Source of the DNA: an uncultured delta proteobacterium
GTDB lineage: Bacteria; Desulfobacterota; Syntrophobacteria; Syntrophobacterales; Syntrophobacteraceae
DNA length: 64,000 nt
Assembly: GCA_963808625.1 (NCBI GenBank)
Contig: CAWEHK010000037.1
Span: 1 to 64,000 of the forward strand
Direction of reading: 5' to 3'
Shown: in pieces, positions 4,271-22,035 of the stretch
How the letters are laid out: each line of letters begins with the position of its first letter
Position numbering within the stretch: position 1 is the first letter of the stretch
Notes under the pieces: generated by a model
What the model saw: only the letters and a program-made list of their open reading frames with translations
The model's database searches: none
What the model was told of the DNA's origin: nothing
Position numbers and translations under genes: made by a program

Positions 4271-4710
4271 GAACACCCTCAAAATTCCCTTAATGGATGA
4301 TGTTGCTTGAAGACCTGGCTTATCCCATGCGAGCGATGCCGTTGCTCCGACTTCAGGAAAACTGACGGCCTACTTAACAGTTTTTCTCGATCATGTCAAA
4401 AAGATGCGATGGCTTGGCATAACCAACCCATCGGAGTTGCACCTTGACGCGCCGTAGTGAAGTGGATAAGCTAGAGCGATTATAGATAGAATCCTTTACG
4501 ATTACGCTGTCACCGCAGGTCTCACTGATGCTTTGCATGAACATCGGGGTCGAGATAGAAGCCTGGGCAATAAACGTCAGGGACGTGACTAAACGTCGGC
4601 TGAATGTGTATAAGTTAGAGTCGCTATAGAAGCCAGACGCATCAAGCGTCATGGAGGGGTACTTGAGTCATCCGATTTCAGCAAACTACCACCCGGTAGG
4701 GAAGGACAAA

Positions 4711-7700
4711 ATGAGAGCGACGAACCAATTCCTGGAGAGGCTTCGTTTTTCCCCAGGCCGGTCACCAGGCAGCCCTCTCGCAATATTGTTAATTTGCCTC
4801 TTTTGCGCCCTCTTCTTCGTTGGCCTGTCGTTGACCATGTCAAGGCCGGCAGAGAAATTACTGCGAGCGGACAGGTATGGCCAGCTCCCACTGTACTTTA
4901 TGAAGAACGAGGGGCAGCTCAATCCTGAGGTGAAGTATTACGAAAGGGGCCTGGGGCATTCCATCTTTTTTTCAGAAGAAGAAATTGTCTTCAGTTTTGA
5001 AAAAACGGGAGACCGTTTTGCTAATTTGTCTGAAGGTGAGTCCGTTGCGAGATCTACGGAAAGATCAAATTCGAGGCGCGGCGAAAAGGGCGCCGAATTC
5101 TCCCAAGTGCGGCTCTTCCCGATCGGCATTCACAAGGATGTCAGGATCGACGGCCAGGAACAACAGGATGGCAGGGTCAACTACTTCCTGGGGAAAGGTC
5201 CCGCGAAGTGGAAGACAAATATTCCAACATATGGATCCATTGTGTATCAGGAAGCCTATCCTGGCATTGATTTCAGATTCTACGGTTCGAATCAGCGTTT
5301 GGAATACGACGTCATCATCAAACCCGGCGCCAAGCCATCCCAGGTCAAGTTCGGATACCAAGGCGTGCAGAATTTCAGAACCACAGAAGAGGGGGACCTG
5401 CACTTAGAACTTCCTGATGGGGGCATCCTGGTTCACAAGAAACCAATGGCGTATCAGGAGATCAATGGGAAACATGTTAACGTCGCCGGAAGATTCGATA
5501 TCGAACAGCGGTCTCCGTACTCCTCAAAGGAAAGTCCTGACTTTGTCTTTGGGTTCGAGGTGGCTTCCTATAACGGAAACTACCCCCTCATTATCGACCC
5601 GGTGCTGGTTTACTCCACCTATGTCGGCGGCTCCGGAAGTGACGCCGGCTATGCCATTGCCGTTGACGCTCTGGGTGGCGCCTATGTGACCGGAAGAACT
5701 TCATCGTCCGACTTCCCCACCAAACCGCACTTGCAGAGCTCCTTTATGGGAGGGAGTGCCGACGTGTTTGTGTTGAAGCTCAATGCGGCGGGGGACAAAT
5801 TAGACTACTCCACCTATTTGGGGGGCAATGATACCCAATCCGGCTACGCCATCGCCGTGGATGAAACGGGCTGTGCCTACATAACGGGAGTGACCACGTC
5901 TCCCGACTTTCCCACCGTTAATCCTTATCCAAGCACCCCTGGGAGCCCAGATTCACCCCGCGCCTTTGTGGTCAAGCTGAACCCCAAAGGGTCGGTGGTC
6001 TATTCGACCTATCTCGGAGCCAGTCAAAGTGACACCGGCCTCGGGATTGCCGTGGACAGGGACGGCAAGGCTTATGTCACCGGTGAGACTTCTTCCTCCG
6101 ACTTTCCCATCGTCGGGAGTGCCTTCACCTATGGCGGCGGATCGTTTGATGCCTTCGTAGCGAAACTCGGTATATCCGGTGATGTACTTGAATATTCGAC
6201 GTTCCTCGGGGGCAATGATACCGACTCCGGTTATGGCGTCGCCGTCGATGATAACGGAAGCATATACATAGCGGGAGAAACTTCTTCATCTGACTTTCCA
6301 ATGGCCGGTGGGGCGCAGATTGAATATGGTGGCGGAGCGGCCGATGCTTTTGTGGTGAAAATCGACGGCACATCTGGTCTCATTGGCTACTCGACTTACC
6401 TGGGCGGCAGCGGCGCCGATTTTGGTCGGGGGATTGCAGTCGACCTTAATCATAGTGTTTACGTCACAGGCAAGACCTCATCGGCTTCTGGCTTTCCCCT
6501 TGCTAATCCCTGGCAGAGCGGGTTCGGCGGCGGTGCATTCGATGTTTTTGTCACGAAACTGGACCCCACGGGATACAGCCTTTCTTACTCTACCTTTCTT
6601 GGGGGCGATGGGAATGATACCGGTCAGGCCATTGCGGTGGACGGTAGCGGCAGGGCTTACGTTACCGGCCAAACCTCCGGGAATTTCCCCACGATAAAAG
6701 CGATCCAAAACGTCCATGGCGGGGGGAGTGCTGACGCTTTCGTCGCAAGGCTCAATGCCATGGGAGATAGCTTGGATTTCTCCACCTATCTTGGGGGCAC
6801 TGCCGATGACATCGGCTATGGCATTGCTACTGACTCCAAAGGCGACATCTACGTGGCGGGGAAGACATCGTCTGTCGATTTCCCCTGGATCGCCAACGCC
6901 TTTATGAAGGTGAACGGCGGAGGCTCTGATGCCTTTGTGGCCAAGCTCAACGCCCTGTTGGCCAGCTTCAGCGCCAGTCCAACCTCTGGTGGATATCCCC
7001 TTACGGTCAAGTTTACAGACCTGTCCGAAGGCACGATCTCGAGTTGGTCCTGGAATTTTGGTGATGGAAATTCCACTACTGCTCAAAATCCAAGCCACAC
7101 CTATGTGGCGCCCGGCAGTTACGCGGTAAGCCTGAAGGTCGGCGGTGAAGCTGGAAATGATACCGAGACAAGGGATGGTTATATTACGGTCACAAAACCG
7201 GACGTTACCATCGTTGCAACAAAGGCTCGTGTCTCTAAAGCGGGATCGGAAAAAGGCGAGTTTACAATTTCCCGCTCATCTTCAACAAGCGTTGACCTGA
7301 CCGTGAATTATACGCTTGGCGGATCAGCCAAGAACGGTATCGACTACCAAGCTTTGCCGGGGTCTGTGATAATTCCTGCGGGCGCCAGCTCTGCTGCCAT
7401 TTCACTCACTCCGATTGATGATGGCATCTATGACGGCAATCAGACGGCAACCGTTGACCTTTCCGGCGGCGCCCTTTATACCGTCGGCTCTCCCAATGCT
7501 GCCACCGTAACCATCGTCGATAATATTTTGCCTGCGGTGAGTGTCACGGCATCGTCTCCAAGCGTTCCGAGGTCAGGGTCGCAATCGGCTCAATTCGTTT
7601 TCACCACCAGCAAGGCTGCTTCCTTTCCGGTGACCGTAAACTACACCGTCGGCGGGACGGCAACCAGCGGCACCCATTTCAAACCCTTGACAGGGCCCGT

Positions 7701-10700
7701 TATCATTCCTGCCGGTTCTACTTCGGCAACCGTGGCGCTCACCCCCGTTGACGGTTTGTATGACGGCAACCACACGGTGGTGGTTACGCTCGCCAGCGGC
7801 TCCTTTTACACCATCGGTTCGCCCGCGACTGCGACGATAACCATCGTGGATAATTTTCCGGTGAGTGTCACGGCATCGACTCCAAGCGTCCCGAGGTCAG
7901 GCTCGCAATCGGCTCAATTCGTTTTCACCACCAGCAAGGCAGCTTCCTTTCCGGTGACCGTGAACTACACCGTCGGCGGGACGGCAACCAGCGGCGCCCA
8001 TTTCAAACCCCTGACAGGGCCCGTTATCATTCCTGCCGGTTCTACTTCGGCAACCGTGGCGCTCACCCCCGTTGATGGTTTGTATGACGGCAACCACACG
8101 GTGGTGGTTACGCTCGCCAGTGGTTCCTTTTACACCATCGGTTCGCCCGCGACTGCGACGATAACCATCGTGGATAATTTGCCGGTGAGTGTCACGGCAT
8201 CGACTCCAAGCGTCCCGAGGTCAGGGTCGCAATCCGCTCAATTCGTTTTCACCACCAGCAAGGCTGCTTCCTTTCCGGTGACCGTAAACTACACCGTCGG
8301 CGGGACGGCAACCAGCGGCGCCCATTTCAAGCCCATGACAGGGCCCGTGATCATTCCTGCCGGTTCTACTTCGGCAACCGTGGCGCTCACCCCCGTTGAC
8401 GGTTTGTATGACGGCAACCACACGGTGGTGGTTACGCTCGCCAGCGGCTCCTTTTACACCATCGGTTCGCCCGCGACTGCGACGATAACCATCGTGGATA
8501 ATTTGCCGGTGAGTGTCACGGCATCGACTCCAAGCGTCCCGAGGGCAGGGTCGCAATCCGCTCAATTCGTTTTCACCACCAGCAAGGCTGCTTCCTTTCC
8601 GGTGACCGTAAACTACACCGTCGGCGGGACGGCAACCAGCGGCACCCATTTCAAACCCATGACAGGGCCCGTTATCATTCCTGCCGGTTCTACTTCGGCA
8701 ACCGTGGCGCTCACCCCCGTTGACGGTTTGTATGACGGCAACCACACGGTGGTGGTTACGCTCGCCAGCGGTTCCTTTTACACCATCGGTTCGCCCGCGA
8801 CTGCGACGATAACCATCGTGGATAATTTGCCGGTGAGTGTCACGGCATCGACTCCAAGCGTCCCGAGGGCAGGGTCGCAATCCGCTCAATTCGTTTTCAC
8901 CACCAGCAAGGCTGCTTCCTTTCCGGTGACCGTAAACTACACCGTCGGCGGGACGGCAACCAGCGGCACCCATTTCAAACCCATGACAGGGCCCGTTATC
9001 ATTCCTGCCGGTTCTACTTCGGCAACCGTGGCGCTCACCCCCGTTGACGGTTTGTATGACGGCAACCACACGGTGGTGGTTACGCTCGCCAGCGGTTCCT
9101 TTTACACCATCGGTTCGCCCGCGACTGCGACGATAACCATCGTGGATAGTTTGCCGGTGAGTGTCACGGCATCGACTCCAAGCGTCCCGAGGTCAGGCCC
9201 GCAATCGGCTCAATTCGTTTTCACCACCAGCAAGGCTGCTTCCTTTCCGGTGACCGTGAACTACACCGTCGGCGGGACGGCAACCAGCGGCGCCCATTTC
9301 AAACCCATGACAGGGCCCGTTATCATTCCTGCCGGTTCTACTTCGGCAACCGTGGCGCTCACCCCTGTTGACGGTTCGTATGACGGCAACCACACGGTGG
9401 TGGTTACGCTTGCCAGCGGTTCCTTTTACACCATCGGTTCGCCCATGACTGCGACGATAACCATCGTGGATAGTTTGCCGGTGAGTGTCACGGCATCGAC
9501 TCCAAGCGTCCCGAGGTCAGGCCCGCAATCGGCTCAATTCGTTTTCACCACCAGCAAGGCTGCTTCCTTTCCGGTGACCGTGAACTACACCGTCGGCGGG
9601 ACGGCAACCAGCGGCGCCCATTTCAAACCCATGACAGGGCCCGTTATCATTCCTGCCGGTTCTACTTCGGCAACCGTGGCGCTCACCCCTGTTGACGGTT
9701 CGTATGACGGCAACCACACGGTGGTGGTTACGCTCGCCAGCGGTTCCTTTTACACCATCGGTTCGCCCGCGACTGCGACGATAACCATCGTGGATAATTT
9801 GCCGGTGAGTGTCACGGCATCGACTCCAAGCGTCCCGAGGTCAGGTTCGCAATCGGCTCAATTCGTTTTCACCACCAGCAAGGCTGCTTCCTTTCCGGTG
9901 ACCGTGAACTACACCGTCGGCGGGACGGCAACCAGCGGCGCCCATTTCAAACCCATGACAGGGCCCGTTATCATTCCTGCCGGTGCTAATTCGGCAACCG
10001 TGGCGCTCACCCCCGTTGACGGTTTGTATGACGGCAACCACACGGCGGTGGTTACGCTCGCCAGTGGTTCCTTTTACACCATCGGTTCGCCCGCGACTGC
10101 GACGATAACCATCGTGGATAATTTGCCGGTGAGTGTCACGGCATCGACTCCAAGCGTCCCGAGGTCAGGCTCGCAATCGGCTCAATTCGTTTTCACCACC
10201 AGCAAGGCTGCTTCCTTTCCGGTGACCGTGAACTACACCGTCGGCGGGACGGCAACCAGCGGCGCCCATTTCAAACCCATGACAGGGCCCGTTATCATTC
10301 CTGCCGGTTCTACTTCGGCAACCGTGGCGCTCACCCCTGTTGACGGTTCGTATGACGGCAACCACACGGTGGTGGTTACGCTCGCCAGCGGTTCCTTTTA
10401 CACCATCGGTTCGCCCGCGACTGCGACGATAACCATCGTGGATAGTTTGCCGGTGAGTGTCACGGCATCGACTCCAAGCGTCCCGAAGTCAGGCTCGCAA
10501 TCCGCTCAATTCGTTTTCACCAGCACCAGAGCGGCCTCGTTTCCGATAACTGTTAACTACACCGCTGGCGGGACGGCAAAAAGCGGCGCCAACTTTCTGC
10601 CGCTGGGGTCCGTAACCATCCCTGCGAACGCCACCTCTACCACCATGACGCTCACCCCTGTTGACGATCATTTGTATGACGGCAACCAAACGGTGGTGGT

Positions 10701-13700
10701 TACACTCGCCAGCGGTTCCTTTTACACCATCGGTTCGCCCGCGACTGCTACCATAACCATCGTCGACAATGATGTGCCTGCGGTGAGTGTCACGGCATCG
10801 TCGCCAAGCATCCCGAAGATAGGTTCGCAAACCGGTCAATTCGTTTTCACTACCAGCAAGGCAGCTTCCTTTCCGGTGACCGTGAACTACACCGTCGGCG
10901 GGACCGCGAAAGACGGCACGAATTACACTCTGTCGGGTTCCAGCACCATTCCTGCATTGGCTACCTCCACAACCCTGACGCTCACCCCTAAGGATGACGG
11001 TTTTTTTGACGGCAACCAAACGGTCATTGTTAATCTCGCCAGTGAGACTTCATACACCATCGGCTCCCCCAATACGGCCACGATAACCATCGTGGGCAAT
11101 GATGTGCCCGTAGCGGTTGTCACGACAGCGTCTTCAAGCGTCCCGAAGATAGGTTCGGAAACCGGTCAATTTGTTTTTTTCACCAGCAAGGCTGCTTCCA
11201 TTCCGATGACCATCAACTACACCGTCAGCGGGACGGCGAAAAGCGGCACGAATTACACTTTATCAGGCTCCGGCACCGTTCCCGCGTGGGCTATTTCCAC
11301 AACCCTGACGCTCACTCCTAAGGATGACGGTTTCTATGACGGCAACCAAACGGTGACCGTTAACCTTGCCAGTGGGTCCCTCTACACGGTCGGCTCTCTT
11401 AGTATCGCCACCATAACCATCGTGGGTAATGATTTGCCCGCAGTCAGTGTCACGGCGCCGTCTCCAAGCGTCCCCAAGTTAGGTACGCAAACCGGTCAAT
11501 TCATATTCTCCATTACCAGGCCAGCCGCATTTCCAGTGTCCGTGAACTACATCGTAGGCGGGACGGCAAAGAGCGGCGGCAATTACATTTTATTGGGGTC
11601 CAGCACCATTGGCGCATACGCGACATCCACAACCATGACTCTCCTACCCAAGGATGATGGTCTGTATGGCGGCGACCAAACGGTCACCATTAACCTTTCC
11701 AGTGGGTCCCTTTACACTGTCGGCTCTCCTGACGCTGCCACCATAACCATCGTGGGCAATGATTTGCCGGTGGTCAGTGTCATCGCACCGTCTCCAAGCA
11801 TCCCGAAGTTGGGTTCGCAAACCGGCCAATTCGTTTTCTTTTCTTCCAGGCCAGCCTCCTTTCCTTTGACTGTAGCCTATACTTTAGGCGGCACGGCAAA
11901 AAGCGGCGCCAATTATATTCTGGCAGGATCCAACACGATTGCGGCACTCGCCACTTCCGCCTCCCTTACCGTCACACCCAAGGATGACGGCCTTTATGAC
12001 GGCAACCAGACGGTTATTGTTAATCTTTCCGGGAGCACCTTTTACACTGTCGGCTCTGCCAATACTGCTGCCATAACCATCGTGGATAATAATTTGCCCA
12101 CGTTGAGCGTCGCCGGGATACCTGCAAGCATCCCACACCTGGGGCCGCAAACCGGTCAATTCGTTTTCTCAACCACAAAGGCTGCGTCCTTTCCGATAAT
12201 CGTTAACTACACCGTTGGGGGGACCGCAAAAAGCGGCACTCATTATACGTTGTCAGGGTCCAACACTATTGCTGCCCTTGCGACCTCCACAACCATTACG
12301 GTCACACCCCGGGATGACGGTCTTTATGACGGCAACCAGACGGTCATCGTCAGCCTTTCCGGGAGCGCCTCTTACACTATCGGCCCTGCGAATACCGCCA
12401 CCATAACCATCACGGACAACAATTTACCCACGTTAAGCATCGCTGCAATCCCTGCAAGCATCCCAAAGCTAGGGCCCCAGACCGGTCAGTTCGTTTTCTC
12501 CACCAGCAAGGCGGCTTCCTTTCCGATAACCGTTAACTACATCGTCGGGGGGACGGCAAAAAGTGGCACTCATTACGTTCTTTCAGGGTCCGGCGCCATC
12601 CCTGCGTTCGCCACTTCAGCAACCCTGACGCTCACCCCTTTTGACGACGGTTTGTATGATGGTAACCAAACGGTTGTCATTACGCCTTCCAGCAGCCCCC
12701 TATACAATGTCGGCCTACCCGGTAATGCGATGATCACCATCGTGGATAATAATTTGCCTGTGGTCAGTATTACGGCAATGTCTGCCACCGTTCCCAAGCT
12801 GGGGCCGCAGACTCAATTTGTCGTCTCTCAATCCCGCAAAGCCTCTATCACGATGACCATAAATTACACGACTGGCGGGTCGGCGACGGGTGACGTCAAT
12901 TACCAAAAGCTGCCAGGATCCATCACCATTCCTCCTGGCTCCGTGTCTGCAAGCATTCCGCTCGCACCCATTGATGACGGTTTGTATGATGGCAACCAAA
13001 CGGTAGTGGTTACGCTTGCCAGCGGCCCCCTTTACGCTCTCGGTTCTCCAAAGAGTGCGGTAGTCACCATCGTGGATAATAATTTGCCTGCGGTGAGTGT
13101 CACGGCATCGTCTCCAAGCATCCCGAAATCAGGCTCGCAATCCGCCCAATTCGTTTTCACCAGCACCAGAGCGGCATCGTTTCCGATAACTGTTAACTAC
13201 ACCCCGGGCGGGACGGCAAAAAGCGGCGCCAATTATGTGCCGCTGGGACCCGTCACCATCCCTGCGAACGCTACTTCCACCGCCCTGACGCTCACCGCTG
13301 TAGACGACCATTTGTATGACGGCAACCAAACGGTGGTGGTTGGGCTCGCCAGCAGTTCCTTTTACACCATCGGTTCGCCCGCGACTGCTTCGATAACCAT
13401 CGTCGACAATAATGTGCCAGCGGTGAGTGTCACGGCATCGTCTCCAAGCATCCCGAAATCAGGCTCGCAATCCGCCCAATTCGTTTTCAGCAGCACTAGA
13501 GCGGCTTCGTTTCCGATAACTGTTAACTACACCCCGGGCGGGACGGCAAAAAGCGGCGCCAATTATGTGCCGCTGGGACCCGTCACCATCCCTGCGAACG
13601 CCACCTCCACCACCTTGACGCTCACCCCTGTTGACGACCATTTGTATGACGGCAACCAAACGGTGGTGGTTACGCTCGCGAGCGGTTCCTCTTACACCAT

Positions 13701-16700
13701 CGGTTCGCCCGCGACTGCTACCATAACCATCGCCGACAATAATGTGCCAGCGGTAAGTGTCACGGCATCATCCCCAAGCATCCCGAAATCAGGCTCGCAA
13801 TCCGCACAATTCGTTTTCACCAGCACCAGGGCGGCATCGTTTCCGATAACTGTTAACTACGCCCCTGGCGGAACGGCGAAAAGCGGTGCCAATTATGTGC
13901 CGCTGGGACCCGTCACCATCCCTGCGAACGCTACTTCCACCGCCCTGACGCTCACCGCTGTTGACGACCATTTGTATGACGGCAACCAAACGGTGGTGGT
14001 TACGCTCGCCAGCGGTTCCTTTTACACCATCGGTTCGCCCGAAACTGCTACCATAACTATCGCCGACAATAATGTGCCAGCGGTGAGTGTCACGGCATCG
14101 TCTCCAAGCATCCCGAAATTAGGCTCGCAATCCGCACAATTCGTTTTCACCAGCACCAGAGCGGCCTCGTTTCCGATAACTGTTAACTACACCCCTGGCG
14201 GAACGGCAAAAAGCGGCGCCAATTATCTACCGCTCGGACCCGTCACCATCCCTGCGAACGCTACTTCCACCGCCCTGACGCTCACCGCTGTTGATGACCA
14301 TTTGTATGACGGCAACCAAACGGTGGTGGTTACGCTCGCCAGCGGTTCCTCTTACACCATCGGTTCGCCCGCGACTGCTACCATAACTATCGCCGACAAT
14401 AATGTGCCAGCGGTGAGTATCACGGCATCGTCTCCAAGCATCCCGAAATCAGGCTCGCAATCCGCACAATTCGTTTTCACCAGCACCAGAGCGGCCTCGT
14501 TTCCGATAACTGTTAACTACACCCCTGGCGGAACGGCAAAAAGCGGCGCCAATTATCTACCGCTCGGACTCGTCACCATCCCTGCGAACGCCACCTTCAC
14601 CACCATGACGCTCACCGCTGTTGACGATCATTTGTATGACGGCAACCAAACGGTGGTGGTTACGCTCGCCAGCGGCTCCTTTTACACCATCGGTTCGCCC
14701 ACGACTGCTACGATAACCATCGCCGACAACAATTTGCCCGCGGTGAGTGTCATGGCATCGTCCCAGAGCATCCCGGAAAATAGCCTGCAACCCGGCCAAT
14801 TCGTTTTTACCAGCACCAGAGCGGCTTCGTTTCCGATAAGCGTTGACTACACCCCTGGCGGGACGGCAAAAAGCGGTACCCATTTCCAACCCATGACAGC
14901 ACCCGTCATCATTCCTGCCGGTTCCACTTCTGCAACGATCGCGCTCCAGCCTATAGATGACGGATTATATGACGGCAACCAGACGGTTGTGGTTACCCTT
15001 TCCAGTTCCAGCGGCGCTCCTTACAAAGTCGGCAGTCCCAACACCGCCACCATTATCATTCTAGAGAGAGATCTCCCGACAGTTACCATCAAGGCTACGC
15101 AACCCAATGCCGTAGAGCCCTCGGTTACTGGTCTGTTTACTGTTTACCGGACGGGAACCACCACGTTGCCGCTCACCGTCACCTATAGCGTTGATGGTAA
15201 TGCAACGAGTGGCGTCCAATATGTGAAGCTTTTGGGCGCAGTAACTATTCCTGTGGGAGCCAGTTCGGTAGACATCGTGGTGCAGCCCCTTGATGACTCC
15301 ATCATGGAAGGGTCGACTACGGTCATCGTTACTATCTTATCCCCTGGTTCCTATAATGTCGGCGTCCCCAACAGCGGTACCGTTACGATTGCTGATAACG
15401 ACGCCCCTACTGTGACTATTGCGGCGAGTGACAATCGTGGAATCGAAGAAGGCATGGACCCGGGATCATTCCTGGTGTCCCGCAAGGGAAACACCAAAGG
15501 GGCGCTGACCGTTTACTATACGATCAGCACCAGCGGGTGGGCCGCAACCAATGGCGTTGATTACAATTATCTTCCTGGATATGTGGTGATCCCGGATGGT
15601 AATGCATCTGCAAGCATTCAGGTGGTGCCTATTGATGATTCACTTCCCGAAGATCGAGAAACCGTTATCTTGGCCCTTGCCGCTAATGGCTGGTACAAAA
15701 TCGGCTCTCCATCCAGCGCCACGGTCTATCTTGCTAACAACGATCTCAGCACCGCGACCATCGTTGCCTCTGATGACAATGCATCGGAGGCTGGTCCCAA
15801 GAGTGGGAAATTTACGGTTACCCGTAATTCGAAGCAAAATACTCCCCTGATTGTCTATTACACCGTTAGCGGCTCAGCTCAAAATGGGACGGACTACGAG
15901 AGGCTTAATGGTACGGTGAGTATTGCTGCGGGCACCGCTTCGACAGACTTCTTCGTAGCTCCCAAGGATGATACGGTATACGGAGGAGATCGAACCGTTA
16001 TTGTGACCCTTTCAGGAAGTGTTTATTACCTCCTCGGTAAGCCCAACAAGGGAACGGTCATTATTCATGACAACGACCTTCCAACAGTAAGTATCACGGC
16101 GCCTGTGAAGATTATCGAAGAAAATGGAACAACGGTTGGTCTTTTCACGGTAAGTCGAAAAAGCGGTGAGTCCAACGCCTGGCCTCTATCGGTGAACTAT
16201 GATAGCTCCGGCGGTACCGCAATCAATGGTATCGACTATAATGGAGTGCTCTCTGGAACAGTTACCATACCAGCCGGTGATGATAATACAAGCATTCAGA
16301 TCACTCCCATTGATGATAAGATAATGAAGGGGACCAGGACCGTTACCGCTACCCTGACGTCCAGCACTGCTTACAAGATCGCTTCTCCTGTCACGGCCAC
16401 AATTAGTATTATGGATGATGAATGGCCAAAAGTAGCTGTTGGAGCAACCAGTGACCTGGTTTCCGAGGCTGGAACGAATCCAGGTAAATTCACTATTTAC
16501 CGGACCGGGGACATGAGTTCTCCTTTAACCGTCAACTACACGATGGGTGGAAGCGCCTTTTCTGGTACTGATTATGTGGCCCTTCCCGGCAAGGTGACCA
16601 TCCCTGCCAATACATCTGCCATGGACATTGAGTTAACGCCAATAGATGATAAGACGGTGGCGCCTGACAAGACGGTGGTCCTCACCATTTCTGACAGCTC

Positions 16701-18897
16701 TTCCTATTACACCGATTCGACGACAAATCACGCAACCCTGATAATTGTCGATGCTGAACAACCCAAAGTATCCATATACATGGTGCAGAACGCCAGCGAA
16801 TCAGGAATGGTGGGACGGTTCAGGGTTCAACGATTCGGCAACTGTCATCATGACCTGACCGTAAACTACACTTCCAGCAGCACCGGTCAAAAAGATGTTA
16901 ACTATGTCGCCCTTCCAGATTATGTGACCATTCCTGCAGGTCAAGCCTTTGCCTTCATCGATGTGACGGCAATAGACGATAATCAGTCTCTGGGAGACGT
17001 GACTCTTAATGTTGCGCTCTCGCCGGATCCCCTGCCCAATCTCTCATACGCCTTGGGCACGCCAACGAGCGCCTGGCTGCTTATTATCGACACTGACCCC
17101 CCGGTTGTTGTCATCAAGGCAAGCGAGAGCAGCATCATCGAGACCGGCGTCACCACCGGCAAATTCACTGCCACCCGCACGGGCTCAACCGTCTCAGCCT
17201 TGGTTGTTCAGTATGATCTGGGGGGAACGGCAAAGAGCGGCGTGGATTTCAAATCCCCTCCGTTCCCCCTCTTGATTCCTGCCGGTAAGGCATCGGCAGC
17301 TATTAATGTAACCCCCATTGATGACAAGGAATACAAAGGGGACAGGACGGTTGTCGCTACGTTGTTGAGCAGTTCCAGCTCCGCTTACTATTTGGGCGCT
17401 CCTGACAATGCGACTATTACTATCCGTGACAATGAGTTGCCGACTGTCAGTATCACCGTGGCCGATGCCGTCGCCAACAGACCAGGCAATACGGGAAGGT
17501 TCAAGATTAACCGGACGGGTATTACAAGCGCCCCGCTAAAGGTTAAGTACAGCACCGACGGCACGGCGACGAATGGTACGGATTACAAAAAGCTTGCCGG
17601 CGCCGTCACCATTCCAAAGGGTTCTTCATCGGTCAGCATCCTGATAACGCCTGCCGGCCCTAAAGCGAAAGTCAATAAGACTGTTATCCTCAAGCCTAAG
17701 TCGAGTACTGTCTACTCTTTGGTTGCACCGAAGAGCGGGACCGTCACCATCCTGGCTGACAACCTTCCGAAAGTAAGCGTCGTTGCCTCTGACCCGACTG
17801 CTACGGAACCGGGCCTGAAGGAAGGCAAGTTTACGGTGAGTCGAACCAGAGATACGACCTCTGCGTTGACGGTCCAATACACCCTCGGCGGTACGGCCAA
17901 AAATGGTACAGATCATGTCACCCTGCCGGGAACGGTAATGATCCCTGCCGGAGCATTGTCAGCAGACATCGCCGTGACCCCTGTGGTCGATGCAATCGTC
18001 GACGACAATCAGACGGTTGTGCTCAGACTTGCAGAAACCACAGCCTACATCTCAGCAGCGCCAAGCAGCGCCACCGTCACCATCAAAGACAACAGCCCGC
18101 CGAAGGTGACCATCAAGGCAAAGGATACCAGCATCTCGGAAGACGTCGCCACACCCGGGCAATTCACCGTTACCCGCACCCGCACGGGCGCACCGACTTC
18201 AGACCTGCTTGTCAATTATGAGGTCGGCGGGACGGCAAAAGCAAATGTGGACTATAAAGCTCTTTCCAAGTCGCTGGTGATCCCCGCTGAATCATCTTCG
18301 GCAAATATCGACGTAACACCGATCGATGATAACGTTTCCAGGGGGGATAGGACGGTTATTGTTAGCCTTTCGAGTAGCACCGACTACGATTTGAGCTCCC
18401 CGGACAATGCTACGATGACTATTCTGGAGAATGATTTGCCAACGGTCAGTATCTCGGTAACCGATAATACCGCAGCTTTACCCAGCAACAACGGAACCTT
18501 TAAGATCAAGCGGGCAGGAATTACCACCAACTCGCTGGCGGTCAAGTATACCATTGATGGGACAGCCAAGAACGGCGTCAACTACAAGAAGCTTACCGGC
18601 ACCGTCACGATCCCAGCGGGTTCGTTGTCGGTAAACATCCAGATCACACCCCTTGACGATGGCCAGCCGCCTGCGGATAAATCCGTTATCTTAACCCTTG
18701 CACCCAGTAGCGCTTACACCATTGGCTTGCCAGCGAGTGGGACCGTCACCATTCTGGGAGACGATGTTCCGAGCGTTCCGATTGTCACTTTAGACCCTAA
18801 GGTCTGGGAAGAGAGTCCGAGGGAGGGGAAAGTTGCTGCCAAGAGAACCGGGGCCATGGGGTTACTTCCCTCGAAGACTAATTTCAAAGCGTCATGA
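4711..18897 (+). CDS. Giant surface protein/adhesin (~4730 aa): N-terminal hydrophobic anchor, SBBP beta-propeller repeats, PKD domain, ~35 Calx-beta domains
   Basis: Uninterrupted ORF with AAGGA RBS before ATG 4711. YSTYLGG..D.G.GIAVD..G.AYVTG.T.S.DFP (SBBP). FTDLS...WSWNFGDG...NPSHTY (PKD). Repeated TVNYT.GGTA..G.DY...V.IPAG...PIDD...G.QTV (Calx-beta). Confidence 0.9.
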   Translation: MRATNQFLERLRFSPGRSPGSPLAILLICLFCALFFVGLSLTMSRPAEKLLRADRYGQLPLYFMKNEGQLNPEVKYYERGLGHSIFFSEEEIVFSFEKTGDRFANLSEGESVARSTERSNSRRGEKGAEFSQVRLFPIGIHKDVRIDGQEQQDGRVNYFLGKGPAKWKTNIPTYGSIVYQEAYPGIDFRFYGSNQRLEYDVIIKPGAKPSQVKFGYQGVQNFRTTEEGDLHLELPDGGILVHKKPMAYQEINGKHVNVAGRFDIEQRSPYSSKESPDFVFGFEVASYNGNYPLIIDPVLVYSTYVGGSGSDAGYAIAVDALGGAYVTGRTSSSDFPTKPHLQSSFMGGSADVFVLKLNAAGDKLDYSTYLGGNDTQSGYAIAVDETGCAYITGVTTSPDFPTVNPYPSTPGSPDSPRAFVVKLNPKGSVVYSTYLGASQSDTGLGIAVDRDGKAYVTGETSSSDFPIVGSAFTYGGGSFDAFVAKLGISGDVLEYSTFLGGNDTDSGYGVAVDDNGSIYIAGETSSSDFPMAGGAQIEYGGGAADAFVVKIDGTSGLIGYSTYLGGSGADFGRGIAVDLNHSVYVTGKTSSASGFPLANPWQSGFGGGAFDVFVTKLDPTGYSLSYSTFLGGDGNDTGQAIAVDGSGRAYVTGQTSGNFPTIKAIQNVHGGGSADAFVARLNAMGDSLDFSTYLGGTADDIGYGIATDSKGDIYVAGKTSSVDFPWIANAFMKVNGGGSDAFVAKLNALLASFSASPTSGGYPLTVKFTDLSEGTISSWSWNFGDGNSTTAQNPSHTYVAPGSYAVSLKVGGEAGNDTETRDGYITVTKPDVTIVATKARVSKAGSEKGEFTISRSSSTSVDLTVNYTLGGSAKNGIDYQALPGSVIIPAGASSAAISLTPIDDGIYDGNQTATVDLSGGALYTVGSPNAATVTIVDNILPAVSVTASSPSVPRSGSQSAQFVFTTSKAASFPVTVNYTVGGTATSGTHFKPLTGPVIIPAGSTSATVALTPVDGLYDGNHTVVVTLASGSFYTIGSPATATITIVDNFPVSVTASTPSVPRSGSQSAQFVFTTSKAASFPVTVNYTVGGTATSGAHFKPLTGPVIIPAGSTSATVALTPVDGLYDGNHTVVVTLASGSFYTIGSPATATITIVDNLPVSVTASTPSVPRSGSQSAQFVFTTSKAASFPVTVNYTVGGTATSGAHFKPMTGPVIIPAGSTSATVALTPVDGLYDGNHTVVVTLASGSFYTIGSPATATITIVDNLPVSVTASTPSVPRAGSQSAQFVFTTSKAASFPVTVNYTVGGTATSGTHFKPMTGPVIIPAGSTSATVALTPVDGLYDGNHTVVVTLASGSFYTIGSPATATITIVDNLPVSVTASTPSVPRAGSQSAQFVFTTSKAASFPVTVNYTVGGTATSGTHFKPMTGPVIIPAGSTSATVALTPVDGLYDGNHTVVVTLASGSFYTIGSPATATITIVDSLPVSVTASTPSVPRSGPQSAQFVFTTSKAASFPVTVNYTVGGTATSGAHFKPMTGPVIIPAGSTSATVALTPVDGSYDGNHTVVVTLASGSFYTIGSPMTATITIVDSLPVSVTASTPSVPRSGPQSAQFVFTTSKAASFPVTVNYTVGGTATSGAHFKPMTGPVIIPAGSTSATVALTPVDGSYDGNHTVVVTLASGSFYTIGSPATATITIVDNLPVSVTASTPSVPRSGSQSAQFVFTTSKAASFPVTVNYTVGGTATSGAHFKPMTGPVIIPAGANSATVALTPVDGLYDGNHTAVVTLASGSFYTIGSPATATITIVDNLPVSVTASTPSVPRSGSQSAQFVFTTSKAASFPVTVNYTVGGTATSGAHFKPMTGPVIIPAGSTSATVALTPVDGSYDGNHTVVVTLASGSFYTIGSPATATITIVDSLPVSVTASTPSVPKSGSQSAQFVFTSTRAASFPITVNYTAGGTAKSGANFLPLGSVTIPANATSTTMTLTPVDDHLYDGNQTVVVTLASGSFYTIGSPATATITIVDNDVPAVSVTASSPSIPKIGSQTGQFVFTTSKAASFPVTVNYTVGGTAKDGTNYTLSGSSTIPALATSTTLTLTPKDDGFFDGNQTVIVNLASETSYTIGSPNTATITIVGNDVPVAVVTTASSSVPKIGSETGQFVFFTSKAASIPMTINYTVSGTAKSGTNYTLSGSGTVPAWAISTTLTLTPKDDGFYDGNQTVTVNLASGSLYTVGSLSIATITIVGNDLPAVSVTAPSPSVPKLGTQTGQFIFSITRPAAFPVSVNYIVGGTAKSGGNYILLGSSTIGAYATSTTMTLLPKDDGLYGGDQTVTINLSSGSLYTVGSPDAATITIVGNDLPVVSVIAPSPSIPKLGSQTGQFVFFSSRPASFPLTVAYTLGGTAKSGANYILAGSNTIAALATSASLTVTPKDDGLYDGNQTVIVNLSGSTFYTVGSANTAAITIVDNNLPTLSVAGIPASIPHLGPQTGQFVFSTTKAASFPIIVNYTVGGTAKSGTHYTLSGSNTIAALATSTTITVTPRDDGLYDGNQTVIVSLSGSASYTIGPANTATITITDNNLPTLSIAAIPASIPKLGPQTGQFVFSTSKAASFPITVNYIVGGTAKSGTHYVLSGSGAIPAFATSATLTLTPFDDGLYDGNQTVVITPSSSPLYNVGLPGNAMITIVDNNLPVVSITAMSATVPKLGPQTQFVVSQSRKASITMTINYTTGGSATGDVNYQKLPGSITIPPGSVSASIPLAPIDDGLYDGNQTVVVTLASGPLYALGSPKSAVVTIVDNNLPAVSVTASSPSIPKSGSQSAQFVFTSTRAASFPITVNYTPGGTAKSGANYVPLGPVTIPANATSTALTLTAVDDHLYDGNQTVVVGLASSSFYTIGSPATASITIVDNNVPAVSVTASSPSIPKSGSQSAQFVFSSTRAASFPITVNYTPGGTAKSGANYVPLGPVTIPANATSTTLTLTPVDDHLYDGNQTVVVTLASGSSYTIGSPATATITIADNNVPAVSVTASSPSIPKSGSQSAQFVFTSTRAASFPITVNYAPGGTAKSGANYVPLGPVTIPANATSTALTLTAVDDHLYDGNQTVVVTLASGSFYTIGSPETATITIADNNVPAVSVTASSPSIPKLGSQSAQFVFTSTRAASFPITVNYTPGGTAKSGANYLPLGPVTIPANATSTALTLTAVDDHLYDGNQTVVVTLASGSSYTIGSPATATITIADNNVPAVSITASSPSIPKSGSQSAQFVFTSTRAASFPITVNYTPGGTAKSGANYLPLGLVTIPANATFTTMTLTAVDDHLYDGNQTVVVTLASGSFYTIGSPTTATITIADNNLPAVSVMASSQSIPENSLQPGQFVFTSTRAASFPISVDYTPGGTAKSGTHFQPMTAPVIIPAGSTSATIALQPIDDGLYDGNQTVVVTLSSSSGAPYKVGSPNTATIIILERDLPTVTIKATQPNAVEPSVTGLFTVYRTGTTTLPLTVTYSVDGNATSGVQYVKLLGAVTIPVGASSVDIVVQPLDDSIMEGSTTVIVTILSPGSYNVGVPNSGTVTIADNDAPTVTIAASDNRGIEEGMDPGSFLVSRKGNTKGALTVYYTISTSGWAATNGVDYNYLPGYVVIPDGNASASIQVVPIDDSLPEDRETVILALAANGWYKIGSPSSATVYLANNDLSTATIVASDDNASEAGPKSGKFTVTRNSKQNTPLIVYYTVSGSAQNGTDYERLNGTVSIAAGTASTDFFVAPKDDTVYGGDRTVIVTLSGSVYYLLGKPNKGTVIIHDNDLPTVSITAPVKIIEENGTTVGLFTVSRKSGESNAWPLSVNYDSSGGTAINGIDYNGVLSGTVTIPAGDDNTSIQITPIDDKIMKGTRTVTATLTSSTAYKIASPVTATISIMDDEWPKVAVGATSDLVSEAGTNPGKFTIYRTGDMSSPLTVNYTMGGSAFSGTDYVALPGKVTIPANTSAMDIELTPIDDKTVAPDKTVVLTISDSSSYYTDSTTNHATLIIVDAEQPKVSIYMVQNASESGMVGRFRVQRFGNCHHDLTVNYTSSSTGQKDVNYVALPDYVTIPAGQAFAFIDVTAIDDNQSLGDVTLNVALSPDPLPNLSYALGTPTSAWLLIIDTDPPVVVIKASESSIIETGVTTGKFTATRTGSTVSALVVQYDLGGTAKSGVDFKSPPFPLLIPAGKASAAINVTPIDDKEYKGDRTVVATLLSSSSSAYYLGAPDNATITIRDNELPTVSITVADAVANRPGNTGRFKINRTGITSAPLKVKYSTDGTATNGTDYKKLAGAVTIPKGSSSVSILITPAGPKAKVNKTVILKPKSSTVYSLVAPKSGTVTILADNLPKVSVVASDPTATEPGLKEGKFTVSRTRDTTSALTVQYTLGGTAKNGTDHVTLPGTVMIPAGALSADIAVTPVVDAIVDDNQTVVLRLAETTAYISAAPSSATVTIKDNSPPKVTIKAKDTSISEDVATPGQFTVTRTRTGAPTSDLLVNYEVGGTAKANVDYKALSKSLVIPAESSSANIDVTPIDDNVSRGDRTVIVSLSSSTDYDLSSPDNATMTILENDLPTVSISVTDNTAALPSNNGTFKIKRAGITTNSLAVKYTIDGTAKNGVNYKKLTGTVTIPAGSLSVNIQITPLDDGQPPADKSVILTLAPSSAYTIGLPASGTVTILGDDVPSVPIVTLDPKVWEESPREGKVAAKRTGAMGLLPSKTNFKAS
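7537..10452 (+). repeat. Nine near-identical 324-bp tandem repeats (108-aa Calx-beta units)
   Basis: gtgagtgtcacggcatcg recurs at 7537, 7861, 8185, 8509, 8833, 9157, 9481, 9805, 10129 and 10453. Confidence 0.95.
13093..14742 (+). repeat. Five near-identical 330-bp tandem repeats (110-aa Calx-beta units)
   Basis: Unit starts at 13093, 13423, 13753, 14083 and 14413. A further copy of this type starts at 10453. Confidence 0.95.
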
Positions 18898-19579: not shown

Positions 19580-20515
19580 TCACTCCTGACTCCTTCTTTT
19601 TTCTGTCCTGGATCGGGCCAGTTCTATGGAAAAGTCCAAGAGCGCAGAACTTTCCTCGAAGGCCAGCTCACAAAAATCTCCCAGGTGTTCGGCACTCCTT
19701 TCAAAGTCGCTGACGAATGCCGACAAATCGGCGGCGCTGTACCATTCCTTATAACGTTTCAGACCGGCTTCCAGGTGATCGAGAACATCCTGTGAGAACG
19801 GGTTCATTTGGGTAATTGCGGAGTAAAGGGACGGGTTTTGCGCAAAAATCCGGCCGAGGAGGTTCATTTCCAGGCGGTAGCTGGGGCTGGTAAATTCCAT
19901 GGTTTCGGGAACATCCACCTCCAGTTCCCGCAGCACTCTGCCGGTCAGCATGGTAGTCACATGAAACAGGACCTGGATGATGCTCATCATGTAATCATGT
20001 TTTTCCGGGGTGCATTCCTTGATGCGCATTCCCTGGTTTTCGAAGAGCCCGCGAAGATGGCTCCATTCTTGCGGATCAATGCGCACCGGACACGCTGCCA
20101 TGGTTTGGCCTGAAAAGGATGAGATGTTTCCTCCGAACATAGGGTGCAGCCCTACGATAGATGAGGGAGAGCGCAACATTGCTTGAATGGGAGCAACCTT
20201 GAGGCTGCTTAAATCCATGAGCAATTGCTCGGGGCGAGCGAACGGAATGAGTTCTCGGATAATGCTCACCGTCTGGTGAAGTGGCACGGCAAAGAGGACC
20301 ATATCCGATATCCGCATGACTTCTTCATTGTCTTTACCCGCGTTGCAGTCTGCGATATGTACTTGATATCCTTGGGCCTTAAAGAAGCCGCCAAATAATT
20401 GCCCCATCTGACCCATGCCGCCAATGATTCCTATCCTGTTTCCGCGAATCCAGTGCTGCGATTCGCCATCTTCCTGCCCAGATAAAAAATGAGGAAATTC
20501 TTGCTGCGACTCCAT
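19580..20515 (-). CDS. tyrA: Prephenate/arogenate dehydrogenase
   Basis: IGIIGG.GQMG, DLSSLK, GLHPMFG and HD.MMS.IQ motifs. Lies downstream of aroF. Confidence 0.9.
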   Translation of the reverse strand: MESQQEFPHFLSGQEDGESQHWIRGNRIGIIGGMGQMGQLFGGFFKAQGYQVHIADCNAGKDNEEVMRISDMVLFAVPLHQTVSIIRELIPFARPEQLLMDLSSLKVAPIQAMLRSPSSIVGLHPMFGGNISSFSGQTMAACPVRIDPQEWSHLRGLFENQGMRIKECTPEKHDYMMSIIQVLFHVTTMLTGRVLRELEVDVPETMEFTSPSYRLEMNLLGRIFAQNPSLYSAITQMNPFSQDVLDHLEAGLKRYKEWYSAADLSAFVSDFERSAEHLGDFCELAFEESSALLDFSIELARSRTEKRRSQE

Positions 20516-20593: not shown

Positions 20594-21607
20594 CTAAAGA
20601 GTCCTCCCGACCGCCCTGGCCACCCGTTGGCATTCTTCGATCATCGTCGCGAAAGCCTGGGGACGCATGGACTGAGGACCGTCGCTAAAGGCTTCTTCCG
20701 GCCTGACGTGGACCTCGATGAGCAAACCGTCGGCGCCGGCAGCAACCGCCGCTCTCGAGACTGCCGGAACCAGATCTGCCCGGCCCACCGCATGGCTTGG
20801 GTCCACAATTACCGGCAAATGGGTCAACTGTTTCAAGAGAGGAATGGCACTGATGTCGAGGGTGTTGCGAGTTTCGGTTTCAAAGGTCCGGATTCCCCGC
20901 TCACAGAGGATCACTCTCTCATTGCCCTGAGCAAGGATATACTCCGCTGACATGAGAAACTCCTTTATGGTGGCGCTCATCCCGCGCTTCAGGATCACCG
21001 GTTTTTCAATATTTCCCACTTCCGTCAACAGTCTGAAGTTCTGCATGTTTCTCGTGCCAATCTGGATGATATCAGCGTATCGGCAGACCAGGACGGTATC
21101 CCTTGGGTCCATGAGCTCAGTCACCACCAGCATGCCCGTTCGTTCGCGCACCGCATCCAGGAACTTGAGGCCCTTTTCACCCCAGCCTTGAAAGGCGTAT
21201 GGCGAGGTTCGGGGTTTAAACGCCCCTCCGCGGAGAAAATGGACCCCCGAAGGCAGCAGGGCTTCAGCAATTTCCTCTAGCACCTCTCGGCTCTCCACGG
21301 CACAAGGTCCTGCAAACACCTGGATCTTTTGACCGCCGATTTCCTGACCGTTCACTCTGATCACGGTGTCTTCGGGTTTGAATTCTCTGCTCACCAGCTT
21401 GTAGGGCTTGAGGATAGGCAGCACCGATTCCACGCCGGGCATCGATTCCAGGGGCACTTCTCGCAGGATCCGTTCATCCCCGATAGCCCCGACGATGGTC
21501 CGATGTTCACCTTTTGAGATATGCGCACGGAACCCCAAATCCTCAAGGCGTCTTACAATGCGATGCAGATCATCATCTTCGTGTCCAGGTTTCAAAACAA
21601 TAATCAT
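20594..21607 (-). CDS. aroF: DAHP synthase (class I-beta, with N-terminal regulatory domain)
   Basis: AGPCAVES, RGGAFKPRTSPY, QIGTRNMQNF, LCERGIRTFE and DPSHA motifs. GGAG RBS before ATG 21607. Confidence 0.95.
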   Translation of the reverse strand: MIIVLKPGHEDDDLHRIVRRLEDLGFRAHISKGEHRTIVGAIGDERILREVPLESMPGVESVLPILKPYKLVSREFKPEDTVIRVNGQEIGGQKIQVFAGPCAVESREVLEEIAEALLPSGVHFLRGGAFKPRTSPYAFQGWGEKGLKFLDAVRERTGMLVVTELMDPRDTVLVCRYADIIQIGTRNMQNFRLLTEVGNIEKPVILKRGMSATIKEFLMSAEYILAQGNERVILCERGIRTFETETRNTLDISAIPLLKQLTHLPVIVDPSHAVGRADLVPAVSRAAVAAGADGLLIEVHVRPEEAFSDGPQSMRPQAFATMIEECQRVARAVGRTL

Positions 21608-21665
21608 GACTTTGGTCTCCTTGAAAGAACGGCATAGGCATCTCTTCGTCCGGATGCTTTGGCCA

Positions 21666-21702
21666 ATTAAAAGGGCCGTCAGGAGATTTATTCCCACGGC
21701 CC
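21666..21702 (-). terminator. Second intrinsic terminator (T2) in the aroF leader
   Basis: Minus strand GGGCCGTGGGA-ataaatc-TCCT-g-ACGGCCC followed by TTTTAATT. Confidence 0.65.
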
Positions 21703-21726
21703 GCGCTTTTGTTTGTCACTGAATCT

Positions 21727-21769
21727 GAAAACAAAAGAGCCGTGGGACCACTTCGGGATACCCACGGCT
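21727..21769 (-). terminator. Attenuator terminator (T1) in the aroF leader
   Basis: Minus strand AGCCGTGGG-14 nt-CCCACGGCT followed by CTTTTGTTTTC. Confidence 0.8.
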
Positions 21770-21821
21770 TCGATGCACTCAATTAGACTAAACTGGCAGC
21801 CTCACATATCCCAAGCGCTCC

Positions 21822-21866
21822 CTAAGGTCCGCTGCAATAATAATAACGATAATATTTCGCAACCAT
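21822..21866 (-). CDS. Tyr-rich leader peptide MVAKYYRYYYCSGP
   Basis: GGGGAG RBS, ATG at 21866, five TAT codons within six positions, TAG at 21822. Directly upstream of T1/T2 and aroF-tyrA. Confidence 0.85.
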   Translation of the reverse strand: MVAKYYRYYYCSGP

Positions 21867-21896
21867 CAGTTCTCCCCTACTTTCATTTTGTGGCTA

Positions 21897-21926
21897 ACAG
21901 TAACGAAAAAGAAAATACCTTGTCAA
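21897..21926 (-). promoter_or_regulatory. Putative sigma70 promoter of the aroF leader
   Basis: TTGACA-18 nt-TACTGT on the minus strand, about 30 nt before the leader ATG. Confidence 0.5.
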
Positions 21927-22035
21927 GCAGTTTTCCACTTGAAGTTGGTCAATATTCGCACTTGAAAACACGGGAAAGATCTTTAAGATGGGAAAACGAA
22001 GATTTGTCATGGCTTTGGCGTCCTAAAGAGAGCTT

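Follow-up and report, generated by a model that had tools for sequence, protein, structure and literature searches.

The segments of four-segment attenuators, such as trpL, pheL and thrL of E. coli, carry a conventional numbering. Classical attenuators have a short leader with a run of cognate codons and an antiterminator that overlaps the 5' arm of the terminator (passages of PMC9413887). For the attenuator of the histidine operon (hisL) of E. coli and Salmonella, the excerpted text of PMC10989985 describes helices CD and EF in termination and helices BC and DE in read-through. In Bacillus licheniformis, the erm(K) leader carries two Rho-independent terminators next to each other (excerpt of PMC4335068) and is classified as a leader-peptide transcription attenuator (excerpt of PMC5418344). 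In the Salmonella mgtCBR leader, two uORFs respond to two independent and additive signals (PMC3641672, in part), and the rimP leader contains tandem terminators whose stems carry inverse motifs (PMC2965389, in part).

We have analysed a leader upstream of an aroF-type gene in a stretch of 64,000 nucleotides, here called the window, from an uncultured delta proteobacterium. Two terminator-shaped hairpins (T1 and T2) stand here against two antiterminators (AT1 and AT2), and the middle hairpin would relay one ribosome event, as it does in hisL according to the same excerpt. The original prediction held that no such relay had been described; this is contradicted by the wiring of hisL, BC and DE versus CD and EF, which is the same, and by the two adjacent terminators that the excerpt reports for erm(K). 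The Tyr attenuator is widely conserved and varies the textbook histidine-operon design; it is not a new kind of switch. It differs from hisL, where the excerpt places uridines after EF only, in that most middle hairpins of this family are followed by a terminator tail as well. Moreover, both hairpins are built from nearly identical copies of a single arm motif, and the signal would be Tyr (Phe and Trp in paralogous leaders). Measured against hisL, the locus has the relay pairings, and it has neither the A:B helix, which is absent from the folding, nor a U-tract confined to the last hairpin. Beside erm(K), compared by its excerpted description, it is similar in shape, with two adjacent hairpins behind one leader ORF that may both terminate; there, macrolide-induced stalling precedes a resistance gene, whereas a run of Tyr codons precedes biosynthetic genes here. 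The single-terminator relatives of the Tyr element belong to the same kind as trpL, pheL and thrL, which differ in having one terminator and no relay. Two termination decisions per leader are also reported in the excerpts on mgtCBR and rimP; in contrast to the two uORFs of mgtCBR, one uORF would drive both hairpins here, and section 7 of the rimP source describes no leader peptide. Since the relay of hisL and the double terminator of erm(K) are known, neither element is new by itself. What looks undescribed is their combination in an amino-acid-sensing, copy-built relay of the hisL type with a terminator-shaped middle hairpin. Our literature search found no description of this attenuator family. 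The study by Lopatovskaya et al. 2010, available as a summary that speaks of 'chains of RNA helices' (excerpt of PMC4833913), may cover delta-proteobacterial cases; the accessible text of PMC6851288, PMC10272879 and PMC11857589 contained no relevant passages.

The features of the locus are as follows, in the order of transcription.

21897..21926, minus strand: candidate sigma-70 promoter, read from the sequence (TTGACA 21926-21921, 18-nt spacer, TACTGT 21902-21897)
21871..21877, minus strand: Shine-Dalgarno-like GGGGAGA of the leader ORF
21822..21866, minus strand: leader ORF, MVAKYYRYYYCSGP followed by a stop, 14 codons, five of them TAT Tyr codons
21798..21822, minus strand: segment B, 5' strand of the antiterminator AT1 (partner 21770-21744)
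21738..21769, minus strand: T1 hairpin (segments C:D), 5' arm 21769-21761, 3' arm 21747-21738, -18.7 kcal/mol
21726..21737, minus strand: U-rich tail of T1, 7 U in 8
21706..21718, minus strand: A-rich linker complementary to the T1 tail, which lengthens AT2 in the window copy
21692..21747, minus strand: AT2 relay helix (D:E), T1 3' arm and tail against linker and T2 5' arm
21673..21702, minus strand: T2 hairpin (segments E:F), 5' arm 21702-21692, 3' arm 21684-21673, -18.8 kcal/mol
21665..21672, minus strand: T2 tail TTTTAATT, weaker than the T2 tails of the paralogues
21631..21664, minus strand: third, weaker hairpin ahead of the aroF Shine-Dalgarno sequence (region folded, -12.2 kcal/mol)
20594..21607, minus strand: class I-beta DAHP synthase (aroF-type), 337 aa, matching NCBIfam NF006421 (E 6e-149) and TIGR01361, both above cut-off
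19580..20515, minus strand: prephenate dehydrogenase (tyrA-like), 311 aa, matching NCBIfam prephenate dehydrogenase models (best E 1e-60, every match under its curated cut-off)

The DAHP synthase starts at ATG 21607 behind the Shine-Dalgarno sequence AAGGAG (21622-21617), and the tyrA-like gene is probably co-transcribed with it. The genes downstream of the Tyr leader thus belong to aromatic amino acid synthesis and are cognate to the leader codons, and the leader ORF has both a Shine-Dalgarno sequence and the codon run expected of an amino acid attenuator. Five Tyr codons in an ORF of this size would occur by chance with P about 3e-5 (at 3% Tyr). An aromatic-rich leader was found in 29 of 30 orthologous DAHP synthase loci, the remaining locus being truncated by a contig end. 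The leader ORF is presumably translated. The candidate promoter is not listed by a consensus promoter scan, its -10 element matching at 3 of 6 positions; the TTGAC hexamer occurs at a similar position in relatives. In the window copy and in the relatives L002 and L004-L006, the leader ORF ends just where segment B begins, so that the OFF state of the window copy is sensitive to the ribosome footprint. One paralogue and most relatives have a later stop, and in the majority of relatives translation runs through B. The leader peptide and hairpins of L309 are identical to those of L007, whose genome belongs to the genus of the window. Elsewhere in the window, positions 4651-18897 hold an ORF of 4748 aa that probably encodes a surface protein and contains many repeats, each of about 110 aa, in tandem.

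We consider it moderately likely that a ribosome-mediated attenuator sensing charged tRNA-Tyr controls aroF-tyrA through a five-segment relay. When Tyr is scarce, the ribosome would stall at the Tyr run, B would pair with the 5' arm and loop of T1 to form AT1, and T1 would be blocked. The freed 3' arm of T1 would then take the emerging 5' arm of T2 (AT2), and the polymerase would read past both sites. When Tyr is plentiful, the ribosome at the stop codon would mask the start of B, so that T1 would form and end some transcripts. With segment D held in T1, T2 would be free to fold and to end most of the remaining transcripts. T1 would therefore serve as relay and first terminator at once.

The segments and their energies were obtained by direct folding. 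T1, T2 and the complementary linker lie on the minus strand at the positions of the original prediction; its extent for T2 (21702-21666) covers the hairpin and falls one base short at the end, as the tail reaches 21665. AT1, in which segment B pairs with the 5' arm, the loop and the inner 3' arm of T1, folds with -36.2 kcal/mol. The 3' arm of T1 doubles as an antiterminator strand against T2, and this second helix, AT2, folds with -28.3 kcal/mol. As a duplex it reaches -27.8 kcal/mol compared with a shuffle mean of -12.9, and 0 of 2000 shuffles of the downstream strand were as strong. This bears out the predicted pairing between the T1 3' arm and the T2 5' arm, which is also conserved and better kept than a mirror control (below). 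The 3' arm of T2 (21684-21673) contains a bulged G and its tail only four U, followed by AA; the better tail of the window copy is that of T1. A simple terminator scan listed neither T1 nor T2, owing to the long loop and the bulge. The third hairpin (21631-21664) has a short TTCTTT tail, and similar hairpins are present in same-genus copies. Without translation, the leader folds internally and AT1 stays intact; within this folding we found no A:B helix that would hide segment B in the absence of a ribosome, and a superattenuating 1:2 helix is not evident because the untranslated fold keeps AT1. Rfam gave no gathering-score match in the window and, in 21550-22000, no hit to a leader family even with E relaxed to 10.

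One half of AT2, the pairing of the U-tract with the A-tract, is particular to the window copy. The linker hairpin folds with -8.1 kcal/mol here and with -1.8 to -3.6 in two paralogues and the closest relative. As a family trait this long pairing was rejected, the linker hairpin reaching -5 or lower in just 15 of 121 loci.

Folding models with a ribosome on the leader (equilibrium folding, ribosome edge 9-15 nt beyond the A site) gave a clear dependence on ribosome position in the window copy. With the T1 3' arm complete, the probability of T1 was 0.00-0.19 for Tyr stalls versus 0.59-1.00 with the ribosome at the stop codon, and once the T2 5' arm had emerged, AT2 reached 0.39-1.00 for Tyr stalls. 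By folding and conservation, antiterminator and terminator are mutually exclusive, and in the equilibrium models the choice depends on the position of the ribosome; both are expected of an amino acid attenuator. On these models, a single stalled ribosome probably opens both predicted terminators.

According to the original prediction, any polymerase that leaks through T1 encounters an intact T2, and this does not hold at equilibrium. With the ribosome at the stop codon, AT2 has a probability of 0.99-1.00 and beats T1 in the OFF state. The A-rich linker adds strength to AT2 in this copy, which is why it outcompetes T1; including the window copy, 5 of the 57 modelled loci behave in this way. A role of T2 as back-up against leakage therefore requires kinetic trapping of T1. 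Pre-emption by an earlier-formed structure is a general mode of attenuator operation and may apply here; the estimated barriers are 10.8 kcal/mol from T1 to AT2 and 3.9 for the folding of T2 from the T1 state. Once fully made, T2 has a probability of 0.95-0.98 in every state, with a barrier of 6.4 kcal/mol from AT1+AT2. The proposed comparison of T1+T2 (-57.1) with AT1+AT2 (-54.9) under a stalled ribosome is indecisive, since T2 refolds in all states and AT1+T2 is lower still (-66.5).

In order to compare relatives, we collected the upstream regions of 182 loci from six gene families. They comprise 32 loci of this DAHP synthase (the best 30 orthologous loci of 41 genomes and 2 paralogues), 37 loci of a second DAHP synthase, the best 30 matches each of a paaK-like AMP-binding enzyme, a trpB-like PALP enzyme and a DeoC/LacD-family aldolase, and 23 loci of a periplasmic binding protein (transporter). 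The transporter set is circular because its 23 loci were selected by the hairpin pattern. Hairpins were called by folding and then registered on the arm motif. Of all loci, 127 were tandem, 33 single or decayed and 22 without a leader or an arm-like hairpin. After removal of 6 miscalls from the 127, the tandem set comprised 121 loci in 63 gene-by-genus groups; seven of the 33 single or decayed loci (L060, L101, L103, L110, L170, L174, L218) are tandem by eye and were missed through the window edge or the motif filter. The leaders differ between the gene sets: they are Tyr-rich upstream of the DAHP synthase and the transporter, Trp-rich upstream of the second DAHP synthase and the trpB-like gene, Phe-rich upstream of the paaK-like gene and mixed upstream of the aldolase. 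Elsewhere, Trp leaders precede trpE and a PALP-family trpB-like gene, and Leu-type leaders precede leuA-like genes. The four metatranscriptomes examined gave small word shares; in two of these RNA runs three short contigs of relatives span the leader and one ends at 21735, in the T1 tail, a position that contigs cannot establish as a transcript end.

Whether AT2 is a mere by-product of two similar hairpins can be judged from the mirror helix of the T1 5' arm with the T2 3' arm, which served as control. In 56 of 63 groups the mirror helix was weaker than AT2; with the circular transporter set left out, this was so in 51 of 56. Core mismatches out of 441 numbered 3 for T1, 9 for AT2, 25 for T2 and 60 for the mirror helix, the last two being inflated by bulges. 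T2 has 69 non-Watson-Crick columns; in 56 of these the 5' base formed a Watson-Crick pair with the T1 3' arm, and in 12 the 3' base formed one with the T1 5' arm. Cognate arms of AT2 fitted better than swapped ones in all but 0 of 5000 permutations overall and 9 of 5000 within gene families; the same test gave 94 and 334 of 5000 for the mirror helix. Paired with 283 ordinary terminator 5' arms, the T1 3' arms reached a mean of -7.6, compared with -18.1 for the cognate arms. Because the registration of T2 used its 5' arm, the test was repeated without any T2 call on 136 loci, 46 being excluded because the leader, the arm or the T1 anchor was lacking, because of a miscall or because the downstream sequence was too short. 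Downstream pairing then favoured the T1 3' arm in 49 of 73 groups, or 56 of 73 after shuffle correction, which agrees in sign with the anchored test and is weaker. The upstream partner of T1 exceeded shuffles in 67 of 73 groups. Since the genera are related, these group counts are not independent trials and nominal P values overstate the effect.

Covariation across relatives, a check proposed with the original prediction, is sparse because both arms come from one near-invariant motif. The T1 wobble columns are neutral and lend AT2 no support: the T2 5' arm copies the T1 5' arm 19 times and complements the T1 3' arm 16 times. Single AT2 mismatches are present in L007, L189, L190 and L194. The dependence of the relay on ribosome position was recovered among the relatives. 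In models of 57 loci, AT2 had a mean probability of 0.61 at one stall position and 0.55 at another, compared with 0.10 when the ribosome stood at the stop codon. For the better stall it was 0.78, compared with 0.24 with the leader stretch shuffled, and higher than this control in 53 of the 57 loci; at equilibrium, just 27 of the 57 homologues showed switching of T1 itself. We consider it quite likely that the relay is functional, and the poorer retention of the mirror helix across aligned arms supports selection on AT2 rather than its origin as a by-product.

Natural variants of the tandem differ mainly in their tails. Of the 121 loci, 87 have at least 6 U in 8 in both tails, the window copy among them, 21 in T2 alone, 11 in T1 alone and 2 in neither; if 4 U are required in the first 5, a stricter criterion, 34 of 63 groups pass with both tails. 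In 13 loci the T1 tail has at most 4 U in 8 while T1 and AT2 are retained (e.g. L219, L222-L224, L198), and these are spread over the trpB2, aldolase-type, transporter and paaK sets. That T1 is kept without a U-tract in several lineages points to relaying as a separate role of T1. Relatives without T2 have a strong T1 tail (L014, L016-L021, L197, L200-L202, L205), and some single-terminator leaders (L070) encode the complement of the arm within their leader ORF. In the gene family of the window, T2 decays in some genera (L013, L015) and L009 and L010 have no T2 hairpin; the T1 tail has 5-8 U in all tandem loci. This series would fit a duplication of the terminator followed by loss of either tail. 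The arms themselves vary as well. One family of the Trp-leader DAHP synthase set has both T1 arms in an ACC form and the T2 5' arm has followed, even with a mismatched T2 stem, and in L218 the T1 arm is unrelated, but its 5' sequence is nearly repeated within T2, so that the relay pairing is kept differently. Two aldolase-type loci, L215 and L216, have lost the T2 tail, and their T2 5' arm can pair with sequence abutting the Shine-Dalgarno sequence; they may have switched to translational control. Trp leaders with tandem hairpins in GC-rich genomes (L073-L078) have little or no T2 U-tract, and two of them stand before confirmed trpE-like genes.

Among 314 terminator-like hairpins of the whole genome there are only 4 same-strand tandem pairs, all after Tyr/Phe-rich leader ORFs. 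The arm motif GCCGYGG/CCRCGGC occurs in 8 of the 314, 6 of them at such leaders; a genome-wide terminator motif as the cause of the likeness between T1 and T2 was rejected on this count. A small regulon of further predicted attenuators of this genome lies at C10:70195+, C52:44270-, C5:13940-, C21 (L146), C42:17781- and C2:52959+ of G000. Tandem hairpins are found at a Tyr leader before a LivK-type binding protein, a Phe/Tyr leader before a paaK-like ligase and Trp leaders before a trpB-like gene and the second DAHP synthase; single terminators are found at a Tyr leader before a chorismate mutase-like gene and a Leu leader before leuA. Two copies of the DAHP synthase, 93-94% identical and with the same leader and tandem hairpins, are located at C33:50874+ and C33:186073- of G000. 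Both match in two pieces and one contains an internal TGA; they may be frameshifted or misassembled.

The tandem pattern was found in 67 of 401 genomes of the phylum compared with about 17 for a reversed control; some matches are not attenuators, and the gap limit excluded the window's own copy. A collection-wide scan gave at least 119 stretches, of which 80 were inspected. Among these 80 listed matches, 46 have an aromatic-rich short ORF upstream, and 38 of the 46 have U-tracts after both hairpins. The matches listed include Desulfobacterota groups, Aquificales, Spirochaetota and Deferribacteres, and also many Chloroflexota with non-aromatic leaders. In Chloroflexota and Chlorobiaceae records (L259, L275, L278, L284, L291, L307, L314, L320 and others) the leader ORFs ahead of the same double-hairpin module are non-aromatic and often have a CRSAP-like end. 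The downstream genes there are ABC-transporter, acetyltransferase-like and phosphatase-like, as judged from N-terminal sequence alone.

In the proposed scheme both sites would terminate, and a plain attenuator of the hisL type is the main alternative to a double terminator. In such an attenuator, T2 would be the sole terminator and T1 just a relay or pause hairpin, whose U-run would either signal a pause or be left over from duplication. The weak T1 tails of 13 loci in four gene sets, where T2 remains strong, would fit, as would the excess of T2-only over T1-only U-tracts (21 versus 11 of 121) and the precedent of hisL with uridines after EF only (excerpt of PMC10989985). However, every tandem T1 in the gene family of the window has 5-8 U and the decaying hairpin there is T2; moreover, relatives lacking T2 rely on the same T1 as their only terminator, and the window's better tail is that of T1. 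We regard this explanation as unlikely for the window copy. The opposite assignment, with T1 as the sole regulated terminator, T2 as a duplicate acting as a leaky constitutive terminator or as an RNA-stability or processing element, and AT2 as a by-product of the shared arm, appears somewhat less likely again. A hairpin duplication yields AT2 automatically, T2 is missing or decayed in several lineages and refolds in all states at equilibrium with a small barrier difference, and the wobble-column test is neutral on AT2. Against this, a by-product should leave the mirror helix as well kept as AT2, which is not the case, and the T2 5' arm followed the ACC change of the T1 arms whether its own stem was mismatched or not. 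T1 loci without a tail are sensible only as relays. In addition, 108 of 121 loci have a T2 tail of 6 or more U, and such a T2 would block expression unless antiterminated.

The near-invariance of the arm GCCGYGG/CCRCGGC could also reflect a recognition site for a protein, e.g. an elongation factor, of which the tandem gives two, AT2 being incidental or secondary. The arm is constant over Tyr, Phe, Trp and Leu leaders and several phyla, where pairing would permit covariation, and within the genome it is confined to the few hairpins counted above; in the excerpt on rimP, a sequence-conserved terminator stem has been interpreted as a recognition site (PMC2965389). Yet the layout survives arm variants (ACC, CCATGG and the unrelated T1 of L218 with its downstream 3'-arm partner), and several pairing partners alone can freeze a sequence. 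We hold this reading to be very improbable. Returning to the relay with two terminators: given a functional relay, it is fairly probable that both predicted sites terminate in the window copy, and overall the chance of two working predicted terminators there seems slightly better than even. Any gain in tightness of the OFF state would follow from the two sites acting in series.

For the family as a whole, we see an even chance that these leaders form a widespread, uncatalogued group of attenuators in which a duplicated terminator module builds its own relay. One ribosome decision would gate two terminators in series and the OFF leak would be multiplied down, with lineages tuning the device by keeping both tails, by reducing T1 to a pure relay or by losing T2. 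The module would work with Tyr, Phe, Trp and Leu leaders in Desulfobacterota and with non-aromatic leaders in Chloroflexota. The principle, attenuation with a relay or with two terminators, is already known. If the proposal is true, classical attenuation would reach a large group of anaerobes for which the literature search found no description. The natural series of single terminator, double terminator and relay-only T1 may indicate how RNA switches gain dynamic range, and it suggests a simple route to a relay of the hisL type: a terminator is duplicated and its 3' arm becomes the next antiterminator.
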